Below the pieces are notes generated by a model. That model was not told the origin of the DNA. It did no database searches and worked only from the letters and a program-made list of their open reading frames with translations. This document shows positions 4,070 to 57,052 of a DNA stretch of 64,000 nucleotides, piece by piece. Source of the DNA: an uncultured Planctomycetia bacterium (GTDB lineage Bacteria; Omnitrophota; Gorgyraeia; Duberdicusellales; 4484-171). Made by a program: the position numbers and the translations under genes. The stretch covers positions 443-64,442 of the forward strand of contig CAZVQU010000002.1 of NCBI GenBank assembly GCA_964629655.1, written 5' to 3'. Each line of letters starts with the position of its first letter. Position 1 is the stretch's first letter.

Positions 4070-5080
4070 ATGAAAAAGGCAATTTTAACAATTACATCTT
4101 TTGTATTCATATTAAGCAGTTGTCTTATAGAAACCTCTGCTTTGGCTTGGGGCCGAGACCCCGAACTGTTACCTTCCCAAAAGGAAGAAATAAGAGAAGT
4201 TCTTGCTCAGATCAGAAGCCATGAGGAAGAAATAGAAAAGGCTAAAAAGGAAATGGATGATCTGTACAATGGTGAAGATGAGGCATTCAACAATAATTCT
4301 TTTGTAATAGAATTACAAAAGGAAGGCGAAGATATTCTAGCTTCTTCCGTAGGTCAACGCTTAGGGAGAAAAATGAAAAGCTGGGATAAGACTGATAAAA
4401 CTAAACCATTACGTGACTTTCTTAATAAAGAGGAGTTTGAAGCCTTTAAAAGAATAACGGAAATAGGCAATAAACTCGAGGATATGCGTGATGATAAGTT
4501 AGAAGGAAGGCGTCTTATTATAGGAAACGCAAGGACTACAATAGGCATTAAAGAAGAAGAGTTAAAAAAACTTGAAGAAAAATACGGCAAAGCTGCTGTT
4601 GATGCACTTAGGGGAGAGGTTGAGGAGAGAGAAAACGAGGTGTATCAAATAGATGCTTACCCTGTTAACGAAAAAGCAGTAGGTGCAAAAGGGCAGGTAA
4701 GTATTTCTCTATATATTGTGCATAATAATGCTCAGGTTTTAATTAATCTCAAAAATCGCAAAGTAACTTCTGATAATGTAATGAATATAGAGCATTTAAC
4801 TGTAAAGAATAATTACCCTCTTTCTGAGTTTAAGAAAACAGAAGATAAAGTTTTTTTCACCATCAATTCAGTAGAGTATGAGCATATTCTATACGTTAAA
4901 CACTCTCTTATTGGCTTGGGCATGGGCAGTAAAAATACTCTTAGGAAAGATTGGGAGAAGAAGCCTTACCATAAGAGCAAAGAGACTCATGATTTAAAAG
5001 GCGTTATCAATTTAAGGGACAGTAGTTTTAATGGTAAATGTGGTAAGTTGATCTTTAAGGGCAGCGTAACCGTTAAATAA
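4070..5080 (+). CDS. predicted lipoprotein with coiled-coil region
   Basis: signal peptide ending in lipobox-like LSSC; K/E-rich helical segment. Confidence 0.5.
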   Translation: MKKAILTITSFVFILSSCLIETSALAWGRDPELLPSQKEEIREVLAQIRSHEEEIEKAKKEMDDLYNGEDEAFNNNSFVIELQKEGEDILASSVGQRLGRKMKSWDKTDKTKPLRDFLNKEEFEAFKRITEIGNKLEDMRDDKLEGRRLIIGNARTTIGIKEEELKKLEEKYGKAAVDALRGEVEERENEVYQIDAYPVNEKAVGAKGQVSISLYIVHNNAQVLINLKNRKVTSDNVMNIEHLTVKNNYPLSEFKKTEDKVFFTINSVEYEHILYVKHSLIGLGMGSKNTLRKDWEKKPYHKSKETHDLKGVINLRDSSFNGKCGKLIFKGSVTVK

Positions 5081-5093
5081 TAAAATAAATATC

Positions 5094-5185
5094 GGAGGGG
5101 TGGCAGAGTCTGGTTTATCGCGGCGGTCTTGAAAACCGTTGTGGGGTTATACCCACCGGGGGTTCGAATCCTCTCCCCTCCGCCA
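5094..5185 (+). tRNA. tRNA-Ser(TGA), long variable arm, CCA encoded
   Basis: acceptor GGAGGGG/CCCCTCC, discriminator G, anticodon loop CTTGAAA, long extra arm, GGTTCGAATCC T-arm; ends ...CCGCCA. Confidence 0.85.
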
Positions 5186-6619
5186 TTTCTTTTCGGGGAC
5201 AATTTTGGCAATAGTCGAGTGTGGCTCAGTATAGGAAAATAAAAGCTTTTTGTCCTTCATTTGGAAGTTCGAGCCGCACATTTTCAAAAAATCCCTTTTT
5301 TGAGACAGGTTTCCTTGCCAAGCGACAGAACCGGCCGAATTACAAGAAATAATAAAGTTTTTGGAGAGTTCGAGCCAACCACCGCTTCTTTTTTCAATCT
5401 CGCCAAGATGTTCCTGTAATTCTTTCTTTTCATTAATAAGTTTTGCTTTTTTATGCTGATATTCTTCTTGGGTAATGTCACGCTCAACATATAAGTCAAT
5501 AAGTCTTTCGACTCTCAAACCAATAGCATTTATTTTGTTTTCTGTTTGACGAGATATAGTAGAGGAGGCTTTGCTGTCATTCCTTGCTAATTCTTCTAAA
5601 CGGTTAATCATTTTTTGCTTAACTTCATCATCTATAAAAATTTTGAGAATAGACTTATTTATTTGCTTAAGCAAAGCCTCTTCTCTAAGAAACTTTTGGC
5701 TGCAACGTTTGATTTTCTTGGTACACCGATAATAAATATGACCTTTTTGCTCCTCAGCGGTAATGCTTGCTCCGCACTCACCACACTTCATAAGGCCGAT
5801 AAAAGCAAATTTAGAAGGTTTTCTCTGTTGAGGCCGAGATTTACGTGATAATACCTCTTGAACCTTATCAAAAAGTTTCTTAGAGATAAGCGGTGGGTGG
5901 CATCCTTCATGTAATTCCTTATTAAAGCGCATTACGCCGTAATAAAAAGGGTTCTGTAATATAAGCGCAATTCTGCTTTTATGGACAGGCTTGTTGCGTT
6001 TACCTTTTATATTCCAGCGGACAACCTCAAAGGTGAGCTCTTTGAGTGAAAAGTCACCAGTTGCGTATAGTTCAAACATTTTCTTAACAAATGGGGTAAT
6101 TTCAGGATTAGGCACAACATTGCGCTTATCCTGATCATTCATATAGCCAAATGGCGCCCATCCTGGCCATATACCTCTGCGTAACTTTTCACGAAAACCA
6201 CGCTTGATGTTCTCGGAAAGATTATCAATATAGTATTTGCTTTGTCCAAAAGCAATTGAAAGCATAAACTTACCCTGTGCAGTATTGTCGAAGCGATAAG
6301 TTGGAAAGCGTAAGTCATTGATTACGCCTGTATCGACAAGGTAGATAATCTTTCCGCCATCTAAGGAATTCCTAGCAAGCCTGTCCGGATGCCATGCCAA
6401 AATGCCGTCAGCGTTATTACTTTCTAATTGCTTAAGCATGAAGTCAAAAATAGGCCTTCCAGGAGACTTGGCAGATTTTGCTTCTACAAACTCATCCACA
6501 ATAACTAAACTTTCTTTTTTAGCATACTCACGTAGCTCATTAATTTGCGACTCAATAGATAAAATCTGCCTATCTTCGTCGTCAGTTGACTTTCTGGCAT
6601 AAAGATAATATTTTGGCAT
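5147..6619 (-). CDS. large serine recombinase (resolvase/invertase catalytic domain plus recombinase domain and zinc ribbon)
   Basis: N-terminal YARKST...SIESQ catalytic serine motif and DRLARN; central recombinase domain; CGECG...YYRC zinc ribbon; C-terminal coiled coil; last ~22 codons read through the 34-bp repeat and the tRNA-Ser 3' end. Confidence 0.85.
   Translation of the reverse strand: MPKYYLYARKSTDDEDRQILSIESQINELREYAKKESLVIVDEFVEAKSAKSPGRPIFDFMLKQLESNNADGILAWHPDRLARNSLDGGKIIYLVDTGVINDLRFPTYRFDNTAQGKFMLSIAFGQSKYYIDNLSENIKRGFREKLRRGIWPGWAPFGYMNDQDKRNVVPNPEITPFVKKMFELYATGDFSLKELTFEVVRWNIKGKRNKPVHKSRIALILQNPFYYGVMRFNKELHEGCHPPLISKKLFDKVQEVLSRKSRPQQRKPSKFAFIGLMKCGECGASITAEEQKGHIYYRCTKKIKRCSQKFLREEALLKQINKSILKIFIDDEVKQKMINRLEELARNDSKASSTISRQTENKINAIGLRVERLIDLYVERDITQEEYQHKKAKLINEKKELQEHLGEIEKRSGGWLELSKNFIISCNSAGSVAWQGNLSQKRDFLKMCGSNFQMKDKKLLFSYTEPHSTIAKIVPEKKWRRGEDSNPRWV
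5180..5213. repeat. 34-bp inverted repeat, copy 1 (CCGCCA of tRNA-Ser plus 28 bp)
   Basis: ccgccatttcttttcggggacaattttggcaata; exact reverse complement at 6757-6790. Confidence 0.85.
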
Positions 6620-6732: not shown

Positions 6733-6757
6733 ACTGTCTAAAAACAGTCGATTTTTT
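6733..6757. terminator. weak bidirectional hairpin plus T-run between recombinase start and the repeat junction
   Basis: ACTGT-ctaaaa-ACAGT followed by CGATTTTTT; only a 5-bp stem. Confidence 0.25.
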
Positions 6758-6790
6758 ATTGCCAAAATTGTCCCCGAAAAGAAATGGCGG
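6757..6790. repeat. 34-bp inverted repeat, copy 2
   Basis: exact reverse complement of 5180-5213. Confidence 0.85.
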
Positions 6791-6964
6791 TGGTTAGTGG
6801 ACGAAGTCCGAACATTCTTCCAGCCGAGGCCTGAGGTAATCTGATAGAGTATTCGGCTGAGGCTCTCTCTTATCGGCTCACGTGAGCCGATAAGGTATCC
6901 CTGCGTCCTCACCCTCGCAAAAACTATATATTTTTTCCGGCGGCGAATTTTTTTATTTTTTTGT
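6788..6964 (-). repeat. 177-bp perfect inverted repeat, copy A
   Basis: reverse complement identical base-for-base to 13181-13357 (checked segment by segment); contains 26-bp palindrome at 6869-6894. Confidence 0.9.
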
Positions 6965-7079
6965 ATCGAATTTAGTAATTTAATTCTATGTCAATTTGTA
7001 GTATAATATTAAAAAGGTTACATATAATACTCTACATGTAAGATTTTATAGGTTAGTTTGTTTATTGTCAAGGCGAAAT

Positions 7080-7274
7080 ATGTTAGCAAAGAAAATAAGA
7101 GAATTAAGAAATAAAAAAGGATTGTCTCAAGAAAAATTAGCTCGTTTGGCAGAAGTATCCTACAATACTGTTGTTAAAATAGAATCGGGGGAATCAAAGA
7201 ATCCCACAATTCAAACTATGCATGGAATAGCAAAAGCATTAAATATTAGGGTTGATGATTTACTTGAAGAATAA
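7080..7274 (+). CDS. XRE-family helix-turn-helix transcriptional regulator
   Basis: 64 aa; LSQEKLARLAEVSYNTVVKIESGESKNPTIQTMHGIAKALNIRVDDL is a classic Cro/C1 HTH; ATG at 7080 preferred over the TTG at 7065. Confidence 0.75.
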   Translation: MLAKKIRELRNKKGLSQEKLARLAEVSYNTVVKIESGESKNPTIQTMHGIAKALNIRVDDLLEE

Positions 7275-7286
7275 TAAAGGTATTTT

Positions 7287-7895
7287 ATGAGACAGTTTAT
7301 TGCTACTCTATTATTAATTGCGACAATAACAAGTAATGGTTTTGCGCAAGATCAAAAAAGAGACCTGAAAAAAACGGCAGAAATTTTTGCAAAGTCATAT
7401 TTAAATAAGGACTACAAAACATGCATTAAGATGATGGATCCAATTATAGTTGAAGATTTAGGAGGAGAGAGTGTTGTGGTTGCTCAATTTGAGAAATATA
7501 GAAATACGTTAGACGATAATATGAAAATAGAAGACATTAAGATAGGATCTGTTGATAAGCAGGTAGCTCGTATTAAAGGTGAAGAATATGCAATAGTACC
7601 ATATTTAATGATAATGAGTAATGCGGATGGAGAGGAATTGTATTGTGAGGGGTACTATTTGGCAACGAGTCGCGTTAATTTTCCCTTTTGGTTTCTCCAA
7701 AATGGAGGACCTACTGTTGAGCATGCCTTGAAACAATATTCTGAAGATTTATGTAAGGAGTTAAATCCTCCGCAAAGAAAATTATACAATGACGATAAGA
7801 GTTTTTTAATGGTTGAACAAGGTGATGAATGGGTTCCTTCCGAGCAGACATTAGAGGTGATGAGGGGCTTAGTGGAAGATACTGAAGCAGAGTGA
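7287..7895 (+). CDS. secreted hypothetical protein
   Basis: 202 aa ORF with N-terminal signal peptide (MRQFIATLLLIATITSNGFAQ); tightly packed behind the XRE gene. Confidence 0.55.
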   Translation: MRQFIATLLLIATITSNGFAQDQKRDLKKTAEIFAKSYLNKDYKTCIKMMDPIIVEDLGGESVVVAQFEKYRNTLDDNMKIEDIKIGSVDKQVARIKGEEYAIVPYLMIMSNADGEELYCEGYYLATSRVNFPFWFLQNGGPTVEHALKQYSEDLCKELNPPQRKLYNDDKSFLMVEQGDEWVPSEQTLEVMRGLVEDTEAE

Positions 7896-7898
7896 TGT

Positions 7899-8687
7899 AT
7901 GACAGAGATATTACGAGATGAAGACGTAGCTAAAGTTGAAAATGGTTTAATATTGCTAAAAAGTCGTTATGCAAAGCTTGTAGGCAACATATTTAAGATA
8001 GGGGCTCTTTTAAAAAATGTAAAAGCTAAAGAATATTTACTTCATGGCGTTGCGCGAAGACTTGGCATTATAGAGCGCTGTGTCGAGAATATTTATTCCA
8101 TCTTTCCATTACAGCGAGAAAGATTGTTGGATTGGGATGAGCTGAAAGATGTTGATATTAATCTGCATGCTTTTTTTGTGAATATATTTGGCTTATTGGA
8201 TAATATGGCATGGGTGGCTGTATATGAAAGGAATAGACGGAAGGGTATATATAAAAAAGATGTTGGTTTATATAAAATTAAAACCCAAGAAATCTTAAAT
8301 GATGATTTTAAGCAATACTTGAACTCGGATAGGATGAAAAACTGGCATGATGAATATTTAAAAAATTATCGGGATGCGTTGTCGCATAGAATCCCGCTGT
8401 ATGTACCGCCCAAAAGCTTAACCTCTGATCAACAAAAACAAGTAGCCGATATTGAAGAGAAAAGAAACAAAACCATTAAAGACAGAGATTTTTCTTTAAT
8501 GGATGATTTACGAAAAGAAGAGGATAATATAGGAGCCCCCTCACCATTTTTTGTTCATTCACTGGCAGAGACTGGCAATCAAATGGTAATGTTGCACGCT
8601 CAAGTAATTACTGATTTTGGTACAGTAGAAGAAATTGTCGAAAATTTTTGTGCTATGTTTATACCAAATGACGGTAATGGGCCGTAA
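7899..8687 (+). CDS. hypothetical protein with HEPN-like Rx4H motif (possible Abi-type RNase)
   Basis: 262 aa; alpha-helical composition; NYRDALSHR (R158-x4-H163) resembles the HEPN Rx4-6H motif; no other recognisable domain. Confidence 0.5.
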   Translation: MTEILRDEDVAKVENGLILLKSRYAKLVGNIFKIGALLKNVKAKEYLLHGVARRLGIIERCVENIYSIFPLQRERLLDWDELKDVDINLHAFFVNIFGLLDNMAWVAVYERNRRKGIYKKDVGLYKIKTQEILNDDFKQYLNSDRMKNWHDEYLKNYRDALSHRIPLYVPPKSLTSDQQKQVADIEEKRNKTIKDRDFSLMDDLRKEEDNIGAPSPFFVHSLAETGNQMVMLHAQVITDFGTVEEIVENFCAMFIPNDGNGP

Positions 8688-8743
8688 TTAAGAAATACAA
8701 AAGGCAAAAGTAAATATAAAAAGTAAGCAAAAACAAAATAAAA

Positions 8744-9166
8744 ATGGCGACTTATATAACGATATTTTTGTTTGAACTTATCTTAGTGTACATTTCATGG
8801 TTTGTTTTAAAAAGGATATTAAGAAAAACCAAACTCGACATACTTTTGGTTATATGCCTTGTAATATCATTTGTTGGAGGATATATCGCAGCATATAGAA
8901 TTATTGGATACGAAGTCGCCATGGATCATTTAACAAGAATAAATAATCAGAAGATAGAATTAACTGGGGAAGGCATTACTTTAGAGGAAGAAAACGAATA
9001 CAAAAAAGTTTTGGTTAAAAGCAAAGAACTCGAACCTTATCTCGTTAAAAATGCATTCTGGATCTCACTACCCCCTTTTATCATAGTTGTACTCATTGTG
9101 TTATCTCCTGTTGGAAATGCTATAAAGAAAATAAAACCAAATGAAAAAGAAACAAAAGACAACTAA
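8744..9166 (+). CDS. small membrane protein (3 predicted TM helices)
   Basis: 140 aa, hydrophobic helices flanking a charged linker. Confidence 0.5.
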   Translation: MATYITIFLFELILVYISWFVLKRILRKTKLDILLVICLVISFVGGYIAAYRIIGYEVAMDHLTRINNQKIELTGEGITLEEENEYKKVLVKSKELEPYLVKNAFWISLPPFIIVVLIVLSPVGNAIKKIKPNEKETKDN

Positions 9167-9779
9167 AGAATACCCAAGATTCAATGGCTGGAAATTTATT
9201 CTTTGTTTTGTTTTATTAACTTTTTGTATAACTGCTTGGGCAGTTGAGCCATACTATGGCTTTTTTCCATCTAAACTAGGAAAACAATACAAACAGCTGA
9301 AACATAATATTTTTAATTTTATTATTGATATACCTGTCCACTGGACATTTGGCGTTAGCGGTCAGTCCCCGTTAGCCGTCATCTCCGTATATCCCAACAC
9401 CTTAAATACTTCAAAATTTTCTGATAACTACGAAACTCTAGAAATAAGCATTATGCCAGTAGAGAATATTACACTTCAAGAAGCGTATGAATATGTTATT
9501 CTTGGCATGCGTCAAAGCCATCCAAGCATGAAAATAGTGAAGCAGCCAAAAGAAAAATTGATACAAAATAATAACTCGCTTGAATTTACATTTGAATGGC
9601 AATCGGAAACAGGATTTTTTATTATTGAATGGGTTAGCTTAGTTAAGTATAAAGACCAAATTTATTCAATTTCTTCAAGGTCAGTTAAAGCGATGTTCAC
9701 AAAAAACAAAGATTTATATAATCGAGTCATCAATACGTTTACCCCTATTGAAACTGTACAATTTGACAAACAAAATTGA
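9141..9779 (+). CDS. membrane-anchored hypothetical protein
   Basis: 212 aa; N-terminal TM anchor (FILCFVLLTFCITAWAV) then a soluble domain; overlaps the previous ORF. Confidence 0.5.
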   Translation: MKKKQKTTKEYPRFNGWKFILCFVLLTFCITAWAVEPYYGFFPSKLGKQYKQLKHNIFNFIIDIPVHWTFGVSGQSPLAVISVYPNTLNTSKFSDNYETLEISIMPVENITLQEAYEYVILGMRQSHPSMKIVKQPKEKLIQNNNSLEFTFEWQSETGFFIIEWVSLVKYKDQIYSISSRSVKAMFTKNKDLYNRVINTFTPIETVQFDKQN

Positions 9780-9827
9780 TTTACAACAAGTCAATCCACT
9801 CACTCTAATTTTAAATAGTTAAGTATT

Positions 9828-10688
9828 ATGTCCTTAGGATTTTCAAAAATGTCTATTAGTGAATTCCACGATGAAGTTTTAGAGAATGCGGGTGATTTTT
9901 TATCAAATAATAGAACACCAAGCAATTTAGATAATTTAATCATTTTCGCACTACTTCATTATTTAGTTAAAAGTTACAGATTGTTTAAAGGGATAAATCT
10001 ATTATGCAAAAATAACTTAGAACAAGAAGCAAAAATCCTATTGCGATCTTTATTCGAAGCATATTTACTTGAGGAATATATTGCCGATGAGCCGAATGAT
10101 ATCTCAAGGGCTGAGGATTGTGCAATTCGTGCTCATGTAGCGGATAAAAAACAAATAGAGGAGATGGATTCTTTAGGCATGCATGAGGAATCAGATATTA
10201 TAACAAGAGAAATCAAAGATAAACAAGATAGCGTGATTAAAATCAAAAGTTTGAACTATGAAGAAGCAATAACAAGAGTTAGGAAAAGGCATCCAGGTTG
10301 GAATCGTCTTACCGATAAACAAGTTGCCAATCAAAGTCAGCTTGAGGTTAAAAAATTAGTAGAGATTTTAAATAAAAAATACGAGAATCGGGAAAATGGC
10401 TCAAAAAATTTGATAAAAAGACATTATTCAGCGATAACACGCGATTGTTCGAAATCTACACACTGTAATGATCTTGATTATAATGTCTATAAAAATAGCA
10501 ACGGTGAATGGGAAATTTTTCCGAAATCAAAAGCAACAATGAATGATGCTATACTTTTAGAAAGCTTAAGTATGTTTATAAGCATTATGCAAATTGTAAA
10601 TGAATTATTGAAGTTTGATAAAAACAAATTAATAAAAGAGTTGGATGATAAGTATCAGAGGTACATACAAGCTAAAAAAGACGAATAA
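9828..10688 (+). CDS. hypothetical protein
   Basis: 286 aa ORF, last gene of the co-directional cargo operon; no recognisable motif. Confidence 0.5.
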   Translation: MSLGFSKMSISEFHDEVLENAGDFLSNNRTPSNLDNLIIFALLHYLVKSYRLFKGINLLCKNNLEQEAKILLRSLFEAYLLEEYIADEPNDISRAEDCAIRAHVADKKQIEEMDSLGMHEESDIITREIKDKQDSVIKIKSLNYEEAITRVRKRHPGWNRLTDKQVANQSQLEVKKLVEILNKKYENRENGSKNLIKRHYSAITRDCSKSTHCNDLDYNVYKNSNGEWEIFPKSKATMNDAILLESLSMFISIMQIVNELLKFDKNKLIKELDDKYQRYIQAKKDE

Positions 10689-10867
10689 AAAGGGGACGGT
10701 TCTATTTTTAAGTAATTAAGCATTATATCTATCGATTTCGAATAAATATAAGGTATATTTACCTAAAATCTACGATAATCATTTTCCTTGACAAGGTGTC
10801 GACAAAGTGTTACATTTTAAATGCGTGGCAGAAATGCCTGCATAAATCCAATGCTTAAGGGCTCAAT

Positions 10868-11644
10868 TTATTGAGTCCTTTTTGCTTTTATAGGCAGTTT
10901 ATCCAGTCGAATTTCTTTCTTGTAGCAGATAAAATTCCTTATTTTTTGAAGTTCAAATATAGCCAGGCCATTGTGTTTCAACTCATTTAACTCAGAAGCC
11001 ACTTTGCGGGCAGTGATAAAAAGAAAAACTTTCTTGCCATCTAACAATAATTGCTTAATTGGGTCGGCAAAATCACTATCTCCACTCCACAAAATAAAAT
11101 TATCGACTTTGTTATTGTGATAATCAATAAGCATATCTCTTCCGATCTCAACGTCAAAGTTGCATTTACAGTCTTCTAAATACATTATACCTTGACGGTT
11201 GAGTTCTTTTAGACGGCTGTTTAAAAATTCAATTGTTTCAATATTCAGTTTTTTCAATAAAGGTGGACGAATGAATTGGTCAATTATTTCGGTAGAGTTT
11301 ATCGGAATGCTTGATATATCTATCGACAATTTCATGATTTTTACTGGTTTTGTATTTACAACATACCGTCTATCTTGAGCTTTGTTAATGATGCTTTCCG
11401 AATTTCTGTTCCCTACTAATGTACCGTAGTAAAACTTGACTTTTTGAATCATGCTAAAAGAATCCAAAAATTGTTTTAGACGTTTTAAATCAATATGCCA
11501 GCCCAGTTTATCTTGCCAATGTATTACATTGGCAAAGTCAATATAGACATTTGTTGGCTTATCAAAAATATTTTCGAGCTCTTCAATTAAAGCAGGTACT
11601 TTTTTCGCAAGACTTTGAATAGTATTCGTTTTGGGGTCAAACAT
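10868..11644 (-). CDS. NYN (LabA-like) domain protein, putative ribonuclease
   Basis: NVYIDFANV start of the NYN fold and SGDSDFADPIKQL acidic motif; 258 aa; extended -10 (TGTTATAAT) upstream. Confidence 0.6.
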   Translation of the reverse strand: MFDPKTNTIQSLAKKVPALIEELENIFDKPTNVYIDFANVIHWQDKLGWHIDLKRLKQFLDSFSMIQKVKFYYGTLVGNRNSESIINKAQDRRYVVNTKPVKIMKLSIDISSIPINSTEIIDQFIRPPLLKKLNIETIEFLNSRLKELNRQGIMYLEDCKCNFDVEIGRDMLIDYHNNKVDNFILWSGDSDFADPIKQLLLDGKKVFLFITARKVASELNELKHNGLAIFELQKIRNFICYKKEIRLDKLPIKAKRTQ

Positions 11645-11858
11645 AATTTACAATAATATTCATTAGCACTTAAGACTTATTACATTATAACAAAAATTCC
11701 GAAAAATAATACTATCATTTTGGATGCGATTTCATCATGGGAAAAGCACACCAAGGGTGCTGTGGAAACCGAGAGGTTGCAAAACAGCCCGACTGTGATT
11801 TTGGGTGGGTGGGGTTTTCAAAAACTACTACACTCGTTACATGCGAAAAAGAACTCAA

Positions 11859-12755
11859 TTAGTCAACTATTTCTAAAATTATACCATTGAGGCTAACTTT
11901 CGCCTTGAAGGTATTTAGGATTTTTGCTCCAAACATATTTTTACCACGGAAAGTTGTTTGTACTGTTATATAATTTTTCATATCCCAGTACTTTGTGCTT
12001 ACGTGTTCATAGCTTGATGGGTCGTGCATATTTTTCTTTAAGGTTTTTGTTAAATTATAATGAGACCCATCCCAGGCACTAAACTGTTTTTCTATCTTAT
12101 CTTTTCGTTGTTTTACTAGTAGCTCTTCTTGACTTTTTTTAATTTCTTGCTCTTTTTGTTTCTTTAAGGCTTTTCTTTGGGGGGAGAGTTCTTTCAATGA
12201 GGCTATAAATTTTTTATTTAAAGTTTCTTGCTTTATATATTCTTTATTTAAATTGCCGTCAAGCAATTGTCGAAATTCTTCGTCACTCATTGAGATCAAG
12301 GTTTTTTCAGCATATTTAATCGATTTGAAACGGGAAATGGTGATTAAAAGAGTGTTGGCGGGATTTTTAAGTCTATTGGAATATTTTGCTCTCGCTTGAT
12401 GGAGAACGCTAGTTGCTTCATCGAGGCTACCTTTGTCTATTAATTCTTCAGCATTTCGTACCATAATGTCAATTTTCTTATCGGCTGTATGTTCTTTCTT
12501 TGTAACGATATCTTCCATGGTGCCCCAAAGCGTATTTGCTGTTGCGAAAAGGATAATAACAATCACCCATTTAATGGCTAAATGAATTTTTCGATTAACT
12601 AGTTTTTCGATTTTTCTTGTGATGTTAGGAATGAGGAAAAGCCCGATCGAAATATAAATAAGACCTGGTAGGAAAAAGTCAGTCATCAATCCAAGCCCAG
12701 CTAGAATAATAATTAGACCGATACCCCAACACAATACTTTATAAGCTAGTTTCAT
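11859..12755 (-). CDS. membrane protein with long coiled-coil segment, unknown function
   Basis: 298 aa; two N-terminal TM helices, a third TM, then a K/E/Q-rich helix. Confidence 0.5.
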   Translation of the reverse strand: MKLAYKVLCWGIGLIIILAGLGLMTDFFLPGLIYISIGLFLIPNITRKIEKLVNRKIHLAIKWVIVIILFATANTLWGTMEDIVTKKEHTADKKIDIMVRNAEELIDKGSLDEATSVLHQARAKYSNRLKNPANTLLITISRFKSIKYAEKTLISMSDEEFRQLLDGNLNKEYIKQETLNKKFIASLKELSPQRKALKKQKEQEIKKSQEELLVKQRKDKIEKQFSAWDGSHYNLTKTLKKNMHDPSSYEHVSTKYWDMKNYITVQTTFRGKNMFGAKILNTFKAKVSLNGIILEIVD

Positions 12756-13180
12756 TTTCCAAAAAACTCCTTATTTCTCGGTACATAAATATACAATAAT
12801 GTTATCATAAAATAGAAAAGTTACATAGATTTATATGGAAGAGAAACTATTGGGGGAAAGCGCAGTTCATGCGCTTTTGGGAATATCTTAGAAGGACGGG
12901 ATATTTGGGAATTCCACTCACCAAGCAGGCTTGGCTGCGAAGCTATGGAGCCTCTTCGAAGATGAGGCGGAATCAGAGCAGATAAGACTGCGGATAAGAT
13001 TACCAATCACCTTATGCTGTCACCACGATGAGGCTGAGCCCCTTGCCACTGGCTATCAGAATAAGAAAAACCTATCAAGATGGATATTACTTGCCTTAAT
13101 CAACCTTTCTAGATAAAATAACCTATATTATTGCAAAGGTGGCAAGGGGGCGGACGAATCCCGAGCAAGATACCTTATTT

Positions 13181-13357
13181 ACAAAAAAATAAAAAAATTC
13201 GCCGCCGGAAAAAATATATAGTTTTTGCGAGGGTGAGGACGCAGGGATACCTTATCGGCTCACGTGAGCCGATAAGAGAGAGCCTCAGCCGAATACTCTA
13301 TCAGATTACCTCAGGCCTCGGCTGGAAGAATGTTCGGACTTCGTCCACTAACCACCG
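13181..13357 (+). repeat. 177-bp perfect inverted repeat, copy B
   Basis: identical to the reverse complement of 6788-6964; palindrome at 13251-13276. Confidence 0.9.
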
Positions 13358-13487
13358 TTTTTGTTTTTATCCTTTCCAACCTTTTTCTGTCCAACAACCT
13401 ACAACTCACTTTTTAAACCGAGGCTTTTTAGTGTCCATTTTGTGCCTACCGGATCACCATATTAAGTGATATAATATTGTTTAGTGT

Positions 13488-13506
13488 CGGAAACAATATA
13501 GGAAGG
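13488..13506 (+). repeat. duplicated leader motif GGAAACAATATAGGAAGGG, copy 1
   Basis: same 19-mer recurs at 13753-13771, each about 25 nt upstream of a strong SD and a small ORF. Confidence 0.7.
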
Positions 13507-13530
13507 GGGAAGAAGCAATAAGGAGGTTAT

Positions 13531-13713
13531 ATGCTAACACAACTAATGGGGATAGTGATAGGTCTTTACATTATTACCAAGATGCTCTCCGTGTTATGTA
13601 ATAATAACGAACATGCGCTGGTTCACATAGCGGCTGGTGTCGCAGTTAGCGCAGCGGCGTTCGTAACAATTATTCTATGTTTTGGTAGTTCCTTTCTCCA
13701 TTCTTCGGGGTAA
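13531..13713 (+). CDS. small hydrophobic protein (60 aa, two TM-like segments, AAGVAVSAAA small-residue motif)
   Basis: ORF with AAGGAGG SD; duplicated upstream leader. Confidence 0.45.
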   Translation: MLTQLMGIVIGLYIITKMLSVLCNNNEHALVHIAAGVAVSAAAFVTIILCFGSSFLHSSG

Positions 13714-13752
13714 GCATTTCCCAAGGAAAAGGAGCAGTTTGAATAATGGGTT

Positions 13753-13771
13753 GGAAACAATATAGGAAGGG
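13753..13771 (+). repeat. duplicated leader motif, copy 2
   Basis: identical 19-mer to 13488-13506. Confidence 0.7.
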
Positions 13772-13792
13772 AAGAGAAAGTAAGGGGGTATT

Positions 13793-13963
13793 ATGGGTGA
13801 TGGCGTGAAGGCTAATGCAGTTAAAGAATATATGCAGATGATTGGGGGGATATTCGTCGCAGGGGTAGTCTTAACTTTCCTTTTAACTGTTTGGGTTAAG
13901 TTGTATAAGGTATTTTATCAGATAAACTTAATACCGGGGATACAGGTACACGAGAAAAAATAA
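13793..13963 (+). CDS. small hydrophobic peptide (56 aa) with double-glycine-leader-like N-terminus
   Basis: not in the ORF track (below 60 aa); MGDGVKANAVKEYMQMIGG then a hydrophobic cationic core; strong SD. Confidence 0.4.
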   Translation: MGDGVKANAVKEYMQMIGGIFVAGVVLTFLLTVWVKLYKVFYQINLIPGIQVHEKK

Positions 13964-56695: not shown

Positions 56696-57052
56696 GGGGG
56701 TGCATGGGCTCGACTTGGAGATTAGGGGAAGTGGTTGCATGCCGTAGGGGTAAGGCCGAACGTATCCGGGCTTACAAAACACAAAGGCAACACCTTTCGT
56801 TGCAACACCTGCTCACGCAGTTAGCTAAGCAGGACCCTTAAACTTTGTGTCTCAGGAAATTTAAGGGTTCATTTTTGAGACTCGGAATAAATCTCTTGCT
56901 TTGAGGATTTATTCTTAAAAAATTTCAAAGCTGCTCTCTAGAGAATCCTGCCTTTTGGAGTCTTTAGAGAAAAGCTAAACATAAGGCTAAGCATGTAGGA
57001 GCTATTCTCCAACCCTTTAAGGACGCGGGTTCGATTCCCGCCACCTCCACCA
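56696..57052 (+). ncRNA. ssrA: tmRNA (SsrA)
   Basis: 5' GGGGGTGCATGGGCTCGAC; 3' tRNA-like GGACGCGGGTTCGATTCCCGCCACCTCCACCA with encoded CCA; internal tag ORF ending GCAGTTAGCTAA. Confidence 0.85.

Follow-up and report, generated by a model that had tools for sequence, protein, structure and literature searches.

The DNA analysed here is a window of 64,000 nucleotides (nt) from an uncultured bacterium of the Omnitrophota lineage (contig CAZVQU010000002.1). It contains six co-directional open reading frames (ORFs) at positions 7080-10688, led by a gene for an XRE-type regulator. These six genes are the mosaic cargo of an integrative island, and those behind the XRE gene are best read as independent pieces, not as subunits of one machine. 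The island is approximately 8.2 kb long and extends from a tRNA-Ser gene with a left junction (attL) at ~5183 to a right junction (attR) at ~13358. What is new is an undescribed HEPN-like protein family, represented by the third gene (ORF3), within a serine-recombinase island of known kind; it is not a new six-gene system. The explanation that we favour, with modest confidence, is a serine-recombinase island at tRNA-Ser with mosaic cargo, in which ORF3 is a stand-alone HEPN-type RNase effector.

All six ORFs are present on the + strand, with intergenic spacings of 12, 3, 56, -26 and 48 nt. An earlier note on this DNA had described them as tightly spaced or overlapping, and its coordinates proved correct for all six. 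ORF1 (7080-7274) encodes the XRE/Cro-C1 helix-turn-helix regulator that the note had recognised (Pfam HTH_3, 1.6e-15); the protein has 64 amino acids (aa), or 69 aa if an alternative TTG start at 7065 is used. ORF2 (7287-7895) encodes a lineage-specific secreted protein of 202 aa. Its N-terminal signal-peptide-like segment, also proposed earlier, is kept in five of five homologs. ORF3 (7899-8687) encodes a cytoplasmic protein of 262 aa. As had been suggested, ORF4 (8744-9166; 140 aa) and ORF5 (9141-9779; 212 aa) encode membrane proteins; ORF4 has three hydrophobic segments and ORF5 a single N-terminal one. ORF6 (9828-10688) encodes a DUF5677 protein of 286 aa (Pfam PF18928, 1.6e-10). Two further cargo genes, separate from the cluster, lie on the - strand: a gene for a 258-aa NYN-domain protein (10868-11644; Pfam NYN, 2.8e-14) and a gene for a 298-aa membrane-anchored protein with hydrophobic segments (11859-12755; PHROG 3403, function unknown, 8.8e-19). 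The NYN gene had been called divergent; it is in fact convergent with the six genes.

Homologs at 40-85% identity exist for ORF2, ORF3, ORF4 and ORF6, and the ORF5 frame stays open for 212 codons in DNA of ~30% GC; these ORFs are therefore not chance frames. The proteins had been described as unannotatable. This holds for ORF2 to ORF5, which have no significant match in Pfam, NCBIfam, PADLOC or PHROGs, but not for ORF6, which scores 41.7 bits against DUF5677 (gathering threshold 27.1); eight of eight ORF6 relatives also match. There are no names on record for the proteins of the window.

A pattern scan of one genome per species found 80 loci with an ORF3 homolog, distributed over Planctomycetota, Omnitrophota, Patescibacteria, Bacteroidota, Desulfobacterota, Nitrospirota, Spirochaetota, Cyanobacteria, and Alpha- and Gammaproteobacteria. 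When nine island proteins were compared with these loci by tblastn, homologs of ORF4, ORF5, ORF6, the NYN gene and the 298-aa gene were found in none. The earlier note had read the six genes as one module and had itself named a lack of co-localisation elsewhere as grounds for giving that reading up; it is not sustained. XRE and ORF2 accompany the ORF3 homolog in just one of the 80 genomes, the near relative L007. Clustering of the four genes on each side of ORF3 gave no family that is present in more than four of 78 loci, and among 150 neighbouring proteins 107 Pfam families are represented, none of them more than twice. ORF6 homologs, in turn, have neighbours other than those in the window. 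The components of a multi-gene defence system co-occur across unrelated genomes; these do not. A type II toxin-antitoxin pair with an XRE antitoxin would show adjacency and co-inheritance, and neither is seen: XRE and ORF3 are separated by ORF2 here and by one further gene in each of two sister elements, and an XRE-like match lies within 10 kb of the ORF3 homolog in four of 80 genome loci and adjacent to it in none.

The two sister elements differ in their gene content. In L085/L086, the order is recombinase, motif X (a structured motif described below), XRE (58% identity), a 321-aa gene, ORF2 (80%), ORF3 (85%) and ORF4 (60%), followed by genes of 107 and 226 aa. In L092, the order is XRE (67%), a DUF2569 gene, ORF2 (43%), ORF3 (71%), genes of 560, 83 and 107 aa, and the recombinase. 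Both elements have other genes in place of ORF5, ORF6, the NYN gene and the 298-aa gene. The 226-aa protein of L085 (5533-6213) occupies the slot of ORF5 and ORF6; it has a weak match to HEPN_AbiU2 (4e-4, below threshold). The ORF4 homolog is confined to L085/L086. ORF2 homologs at ~40-43% identity are found in L092 and L007, and a search of 5.8 billion proteins gave four ORF2 matches, all on contigs that carry ORF3 relatives.

The conserved core is thus XRE, ORF2 and ORF3, with ORF4 in one relative, while ORF5, ORF6, the NYN gene and the 298-aa gene occupy a variable slot. The cargo is read as mosaic because co-occurrence fails in the 80 genomes and the sister elements exchange genes. The 86% nucleotide identity between ORF3 and its copy in a restriction-modification (R-M) island begins at the ORF3 start codon and stops within the gene; therefore, ORF3 moves as a single-gene unit. 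What looked like a six-gene system resolves into a recombinase-borne island with swappable single-gene cargo, and operon-like spacing on mobile elements should be treated with caution as evidence for a system.

The integration target of the island is a tRNA-Ser(UGA) gene at 5094-5185 on the + strand (ARAGORN; Rfam tRNA, 45.7 bits), the 3' end of which forms the left junction. A 490-aa large serine recombinase is encoded at 5147-6619 on the - strand, and the last 39 nt of its gene overlap the tRNA-Ser gene. It has the Pfam domains Resolvase, Recombinase and Zn_ribbon_recom and matches the integrase family PHROG 95 (9e-84). At the attL-type junction (5169-5213, + strand), the tRNA-Ser 3' end is followed by an element arm, 'e' (CCATTTCTTTTCGGGGACAATTTTGGCAATA). 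An inverted, internal copy of arm 'e' is joined to the 3' end of motif X at 6757-6801 (- strand), which is the make-up of an intact attP (X 3' end/e). The two stretches form a 45-nt inverted repeat (91%), and arm 'e' copies thus flank the recombinase gene in inverted orientation, as they also do in L085; the tRNA/e and X/e junctions are both shared with that element.

A longer inverted repeat of 189 nt, 97% complementary, brackets the cargo. The left copy (6777-6965, - strand) lies upstream of the recombinase gene in the same orientation and contains motif X. The right copy (13180-13368, + strand) also contains motif X, and its 3' end abuts a T-rich flank; the attR-type junction, within 13344-13375 at ~13358, reads X followed by TTTTTGTTTTT. 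The earlier placement of the gene cluster inside a recombinase-associated segment flanked by inverted repeats was therefore accurate. Cargo GC content is 0.29-0.36, compared with ~0.40 in the flanks. The simplest reading of the three junctions, taken from sequence, is that they represent attL, an internal inverted attP-like site and attR. Recombinase domains, a specific insertion site and recognisable junctions are all features of large serine recombinase integrative elements, and all are found here by sequence.

Related recombinases abut tRNA-Ser(GGA) in L085 (81% identity) and tRNA-Ser(CGA) in L092 (52% identity); this recombinase lineage therefore targets tRNA-Ser genes. The protein has the same domain set as the Ccr-like recombinases of SCCmec and the large serine recombinase integrases of phages, with weak similarity to CcrB and XisF. 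Like other tRNA-targeting islands of large serine recombinases, the element occupies the 3' end of a tRNA gene, and its arm is a partial copy of that end. It differs from them in that an intact attP-like site is kept inside the element, inverted, within a 189-nt repeat that also ends the element. Just beyond the right end of the island, a 29-nt direct repeat (86% identity) is found at 13486-13514 and 13750-13778; each copy precedes a small hydrophobic ORF (13531-13713 and 13793-13963).

The ORF3 family is large. A word-indexed search gave 195 clusters at 90% identity, and a HMMER profile search gave 1,592 clusters at 50% identity (E <= 1e-3), 1,201 of them with E <= 1e-10. Nearly all of the best 150 matches listed are single-domain proteins of 250-270 aa. 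Longer members have no informative fused domain; eight have no Pfam match and one has a receiver domain. ORF3 homologs are labelled hypothetical in deposited records. The family lies outside all models of Pfam, NCBIfam, PADLOC and PHROGs, and with its invariant RNase-like motif it could be a new single-gene abortive-infection or toxin family.

This motif is YRDALSH (R158-D-A-L-S-H163), an Rx4H motif. In a set of 23 sequences, R158 and H163 are invariant and D159 is at least 90% conserved. Among 103 representatives with 28-49% identity to ORF3, the only invariant residues are G50, R54, G98, W149, R158 and H163; the Rx4H motif of the earlier note is thus an invariant signature of the family. The AlphaFold model of ORF3 (predicted local distance difference test, pLDDT, 86.9) is all-alpha and places R158 in the last turn of helix 144-162, with H163 as the first residue beyond it. 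In HEPN proteins, the characteristic Rx4-6H spans the boundary between a core helix and the loop that follows it, and the residue after the Arg is polar (N, D or H) (Anantharaman et al. 2013, PMC3710099). In its sequence, ORF3 has both the Rx4-6H spacing and the polar residue, and in its predicted structure the motif is at the helix end. On sequence and model, ORF3 probably works like a HEPN RNase; its membership of any named HEPN family is unproven.

The nearest known proteins appear to be AbiD/AbiF (Abi_2), PD-T4-5 and ApeA. Like these, ORF3 is a single-gene, all-alpha protein with a strict Rx4H at a helix end and a polar residue after the Arg, and its family is patchily distributed on mobile elements, sometimes inside or beside R-M operons. 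PD-T4-5 is itself a distant relative of AbiF/D (PMC9519451). Models of these families are also the main recurring weak matches of the ORF3 family. In individual scans of the 103 members, HEPN_Apea was the most frequent weak Pfam match, with three members; MTR4-like_stalk was also matched by three, more weakly. Single members weakly match Abi_2, AbiD and PD-T4-5, and nearly all remaining weak matches are unrelated singletons. The best scores are 0.0056 for HEPN_Apea, 0.01 for Abi_2, 0.018 for PD-T4-5 and 0.03 for AbiD, each in one to three of 103 members. In contrast to these families, the ORF3 family has no significant match to any of their models. At ~255 aa, it also differs from Abi-type HEPN proteins in its additional conserved residues (G50, R53/R54, G98, W149, H233, Q235 and D239). 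The HepT HEPN toxin recurs among the structural matches of ORF3, at a level not above the generic helical-bundle background; compared with the HepT/MntA toxin (PDB 5YEP, 6M6U), ORF3 is twice as long and has no adjacent nucleotidyltransferase antitoxin.

The surroundings of some ORF3 homologs point to defence. A homolog with 85% identity is located directly 3' of a type I R-M operon (HsdR-HsdM-HsdS) and 5' of RadC, SIR2 and DUF87 genes; AbiEii, PLD and a nucleotidyltransferase/HEPN pair are nearby. Five further homologs were inspected over +/-8 kb, and three of these are near defence-type genes (Dam with SIR2_2; Dcm, Vsr and HNH; GmrSD with transposases). The family is also found on 17 plasmids, 13 of them conjugative, and one of these copies has a recombinase gene and an Abi-family gene as neighbours. 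In close homologs (79-85% identity; L087-L091, L005, L011), a RadC-like JAB gene overlaps the 3' end of the ORF3 homolog, and one record calls the homolog and the JAB gene as a single 284-aa 'RadC' protein (P0090).

Other cargo genes also have defence associations. The NYN protein matches the PADLOC models NYN (3.3e-8) and HEC-09 (3.2e-7) over its NYN domain. HEC-09 is a candidate RNase-based defence (bioRxiv 10.1101/2024.01.29.577857); the matches here are partial and weak (3e-7 to 3e-8), and the NYN gene lies outside the six-gene cluster. It has been proposed that serine recombinases mark defence cargo, and DUF5677 is reported to be enriched beside them (PMC12632615). The island resembles the RADS of that study in having a serine recombinase beside variable accessory genes, a DUF5677 gene among them. 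It differs in that the recombinase gene is divergent from the cargo and not co-transcribed with it, and in that the host is an uncultivated low-GC bacterium and not a member of the Bacillota. The defence context that had been proposed for the cluster is borne out by the NYN and HEC-09 matches, the R-M-adjacent homolog and the cargos rich in R-M and Abi genes that are found beside the same repeat (see below); it is not borne out by PADLOC, which gave no meaningful match for ORF2 to ORF6. A defence role of ORF3 and the cargo is proposed with moderate confidence. A phage origin of the island genes was considered and rejected on their near-absence from phage and viral records: ORF3 has one match in 50,697 phage records and one in IMG/VR, and ORF5 and ORF6 have no match in IMG/VR viral contigs.

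In the explanation favoured here, the serine recombinase would integrate the island at the 3' end of the tRNA-Ser gene. The XRE gene, which is back-to-back with the recombinase gene and the leader, probably encodes the island's own regulator, a repressor of one or both sides. ORF3 would act alone as a metal-independent HEPN-type endoribonuclease of the AbiD/F-ApeA kind, cutting RNA via R158 and H163, and might serve as an abortive-infection effector or as a toxin that stabilises the element. ORF2 could be a lineage-specific envelope partner or mere linked cargo, as could ORF4 in the elements that carry it. The remaining genes (ORF5, ORF6, NYN and the 298-aa gene) would be independent cargo.

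Several results weigh against this explanation. ORF3 has no significant match to any HEPN, Abi or defence profile, and an hhalign comparison of ORF3 with one Pfam-HEPN protein found nothing. Two of the five further homologs are located among housekeeping genes, e.g. between two aminoacyl-tRNA synthetase genes, and within +/-2 genes recognised defence genes are found at few of the 78 loci and housekeeping genes at many. In tests in Enterococcus, the protective genes did not include the DUF5677 gene that was assayed (PMC12632615). Finally, the ORF2-ORF3 pair is kept with its 3-nt gap in three diverged elements, and a functional pair is possible.

The structured motif inside the two 189-nt repeats, motif X, occurs well beyond this island. 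It begins TTTTTGCGAGGGNGAGGACGC, a 21-mer that is present in 67 metagenome contigs; homologs of the recombinase and of the operon genes are absent from most of these. A covariance model based on six copies gave 42 matches in 60 sources. In the window, it matches the two repeat copies alone: the left copy at 6787-6922 (- strand; 125.1 bits) and the right copy at 13223-13358 (+ strand). Other carriers include L085, L086, L098, L105, L109, L121, L138, L142 and L147. The motif comprises a 5' block that is invariant (GCGAGGGNGAGGACGC), a hairpin that covaries fully and a helix of conserved GCAGCCGAA/UUCGGCUGC. In the alignment, which was fitted to the model so that its pairing figures lean towards structure, 90.2% of cells pair, compared with 75.3% in shuffled alignments and 35-45% when partner columns are slid. 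Compensatory changes are seen in 16 pairs, and the central hairpin covaries at 11 of 11 pairs. Conserved G-U pairs favour the modelled strand, which points outward from the cargo; in the left copy, this is toward the recombinase gene. Both the 5' and 3' ends of the motif resemble those of tRNA-Ser. A known RNA was considered and rejected with Rfam, as no Rfam 15 family matches motif X at gathering score.

In two contigs, L102 and L135, motif X is found at both ends and points outward, as in the window. The cargo of L102 comprises two DNA methylases, an S24-peptidase protein and an HSDR_N protein; that of L135 is unannotated. In nine contigs, R-M and AbiE functions are abundant among the genes that adjoin motif X. 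More generally, contigs with motif X often carry R-M or Abi genes, or serine recombinases, alongside it. One carrier, L108, also contains a c-di-GMP-I riboswitch (813-942). Motif X may be relevant to the way in which serine-recombinase elements of uncultivated bacteria arrange or control their defence cargo. A bolder proposal, of low probability, is that it constitutes a new class of structured RNA in the attachment sites of tRNA-Ser-targeting serine-recombinase elements, which would govern the recombinase or label defence cassettes that can be exchanged or inverted; under the same proposal, ORF3 would be the founding member of a new HEPN-like abortive-infection family, moving singly between such cassettes and R-M operons.

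Four other explanations can be weighed against the favoured one. A single defence or toxin system with all six genes as components under XRE control is highly improbable, and the neighbourhood data largely refute it. In its favour, the genes run in one direction with little space between them and one overlap, they share a single AT-rich leader upstream, and a terminator-like hairpin lies just after ORF6; against this, the genes are not co-conserved, ORF3 homologs lack ORF4 to ORF6 in 80 genomes, ORF6 homologs have different neighbours, ORF5 and ORF6 are replaced in the sister elements, and no PADLOC multi-gene model is matched. A smaller module of ORF2 and ORF3, with XRE in front and sometimes ORF4, is unlikely. 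Envelope partners might, for example, sense phage and release or control the ORF3 effector. ORF2 is immediately 5' of close ORF3 homologs in every case (in the window, L085, L092 and L007) despite divergence of ORF2 to ~40-43%, and all four of its database matches share contigs with ORF3 relatives. These elements are closely related, however, and may simply have inherited the shared gene order; ORF2 is lacking at more than 75 other ORF3 loci, L092 has no ORF4, and a secreted protein is improbable as the direct antitoxin of a cytoplasmic enzyme.

It is somewhat unlikely that ORF3 is neither a nuclease nor a defence protein, but an all-alpha protein that acts elsewhere, for instance in regulation or in maintaining the element, and in which the Arg and His would serve binding or structure. 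No nuclease is significantly matched by its sequence or fold: the ORF3 profile gave nothing when compared by sequence with solved structures, and a Foldseek search with the model gave no match below E 0.18 in the PDB or among viral structures. The housekeeping location of some homologs and the near-absence of the family from phages fit this alternative as well. On the other side, none of 103 diverged sequences departs from R158 and H163, which lie in exactly the HEPN position, with a polar residue after the Arg, and the family is patchy over many phyla, is found on 13 conjugative plasmids and recurs beside R-M, GmrSD and SIR2 genes. Lastly, the repeat-bracketed cargo (6966-13179) could be an invertible or exchangeable cassette, its expression set by recombinase action on the inverted X/att copies. 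The 189-nt inverted repeats beside a serine recombinase, the attP make-up of the internal copy and the outward motif X at both ends of L102, with its R-M-like cargo, and of L135 are consistent with this, as are short-read contigs of the same DNA that end within or beside the repeats. Such breaks are expected from assembly alone, however, and no assembled contig has the opposite orientation. Large serine recombinases normally act on attP x attB and not on two like sites. An invertible or exchangeable cassette is decidedly unlikely.

Between motif X and the recombinase gene on one side and the XRE gene on the other lies an AT-rich divergent control region (6966-7079). The earlier note had reported two TATAAT elements upstream of the cluster. 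The first is found as described at 7002-7007 and the second at 7023-7028, both on the + strand; a TTGACA-17-TAAAAT is found at 7071-7043 on the - strand. These are consensus matches alone, and promoter-like matches in the region are not clearly above chance (40, compared with 28.7 +/- 5.5 in shuffled sequence). At the other end of the cluster, the terminator-like hairpin is located at 10857-10880 (+ strand), between the convergent ORF6 and NYN genes.

ORF5 is the most isolated of the cargo genes; no homolog was found in Pfam, NCBIfam, PADLOC or PHROGs, in any of the fetched loci or in IMG/VR viral contigs. ORF6 and eight close relatives share an invariant R205-D206-x5-H212. Its structure model is poor (pLDDT 52.7), and a comparison of its profile with solved structures by sequence gave nothing. 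That ORF3 and ORF6 are paralogs was ruled out by hhalign. A 37-nt repeat, AAAAAGGGGACGGTTCTATTTTTAAGTAATTAAGC, is located right after the ORF6 stop codon (10687-10727) and has a single copy within the window. Five intergenic copies are present in L163, a contig with an ORF6 homolog (164-227, 1113-1176, 2097-2160, 4517-4580 and 5114-5177); this could be a cassette-boundary or intergenic repeat.

Two features elsewhere in the window were also recorded. Positions 1-2158 contain the 3' part of a 5S rRNA gene and tRNA-Lys(CUU), with an archease-RtcB pair (285-707, 704-2158) directly downstream; the seryl-tRNA synthetase gene follows. A tmRNA gene is located at 56696-57052 (144 bits).

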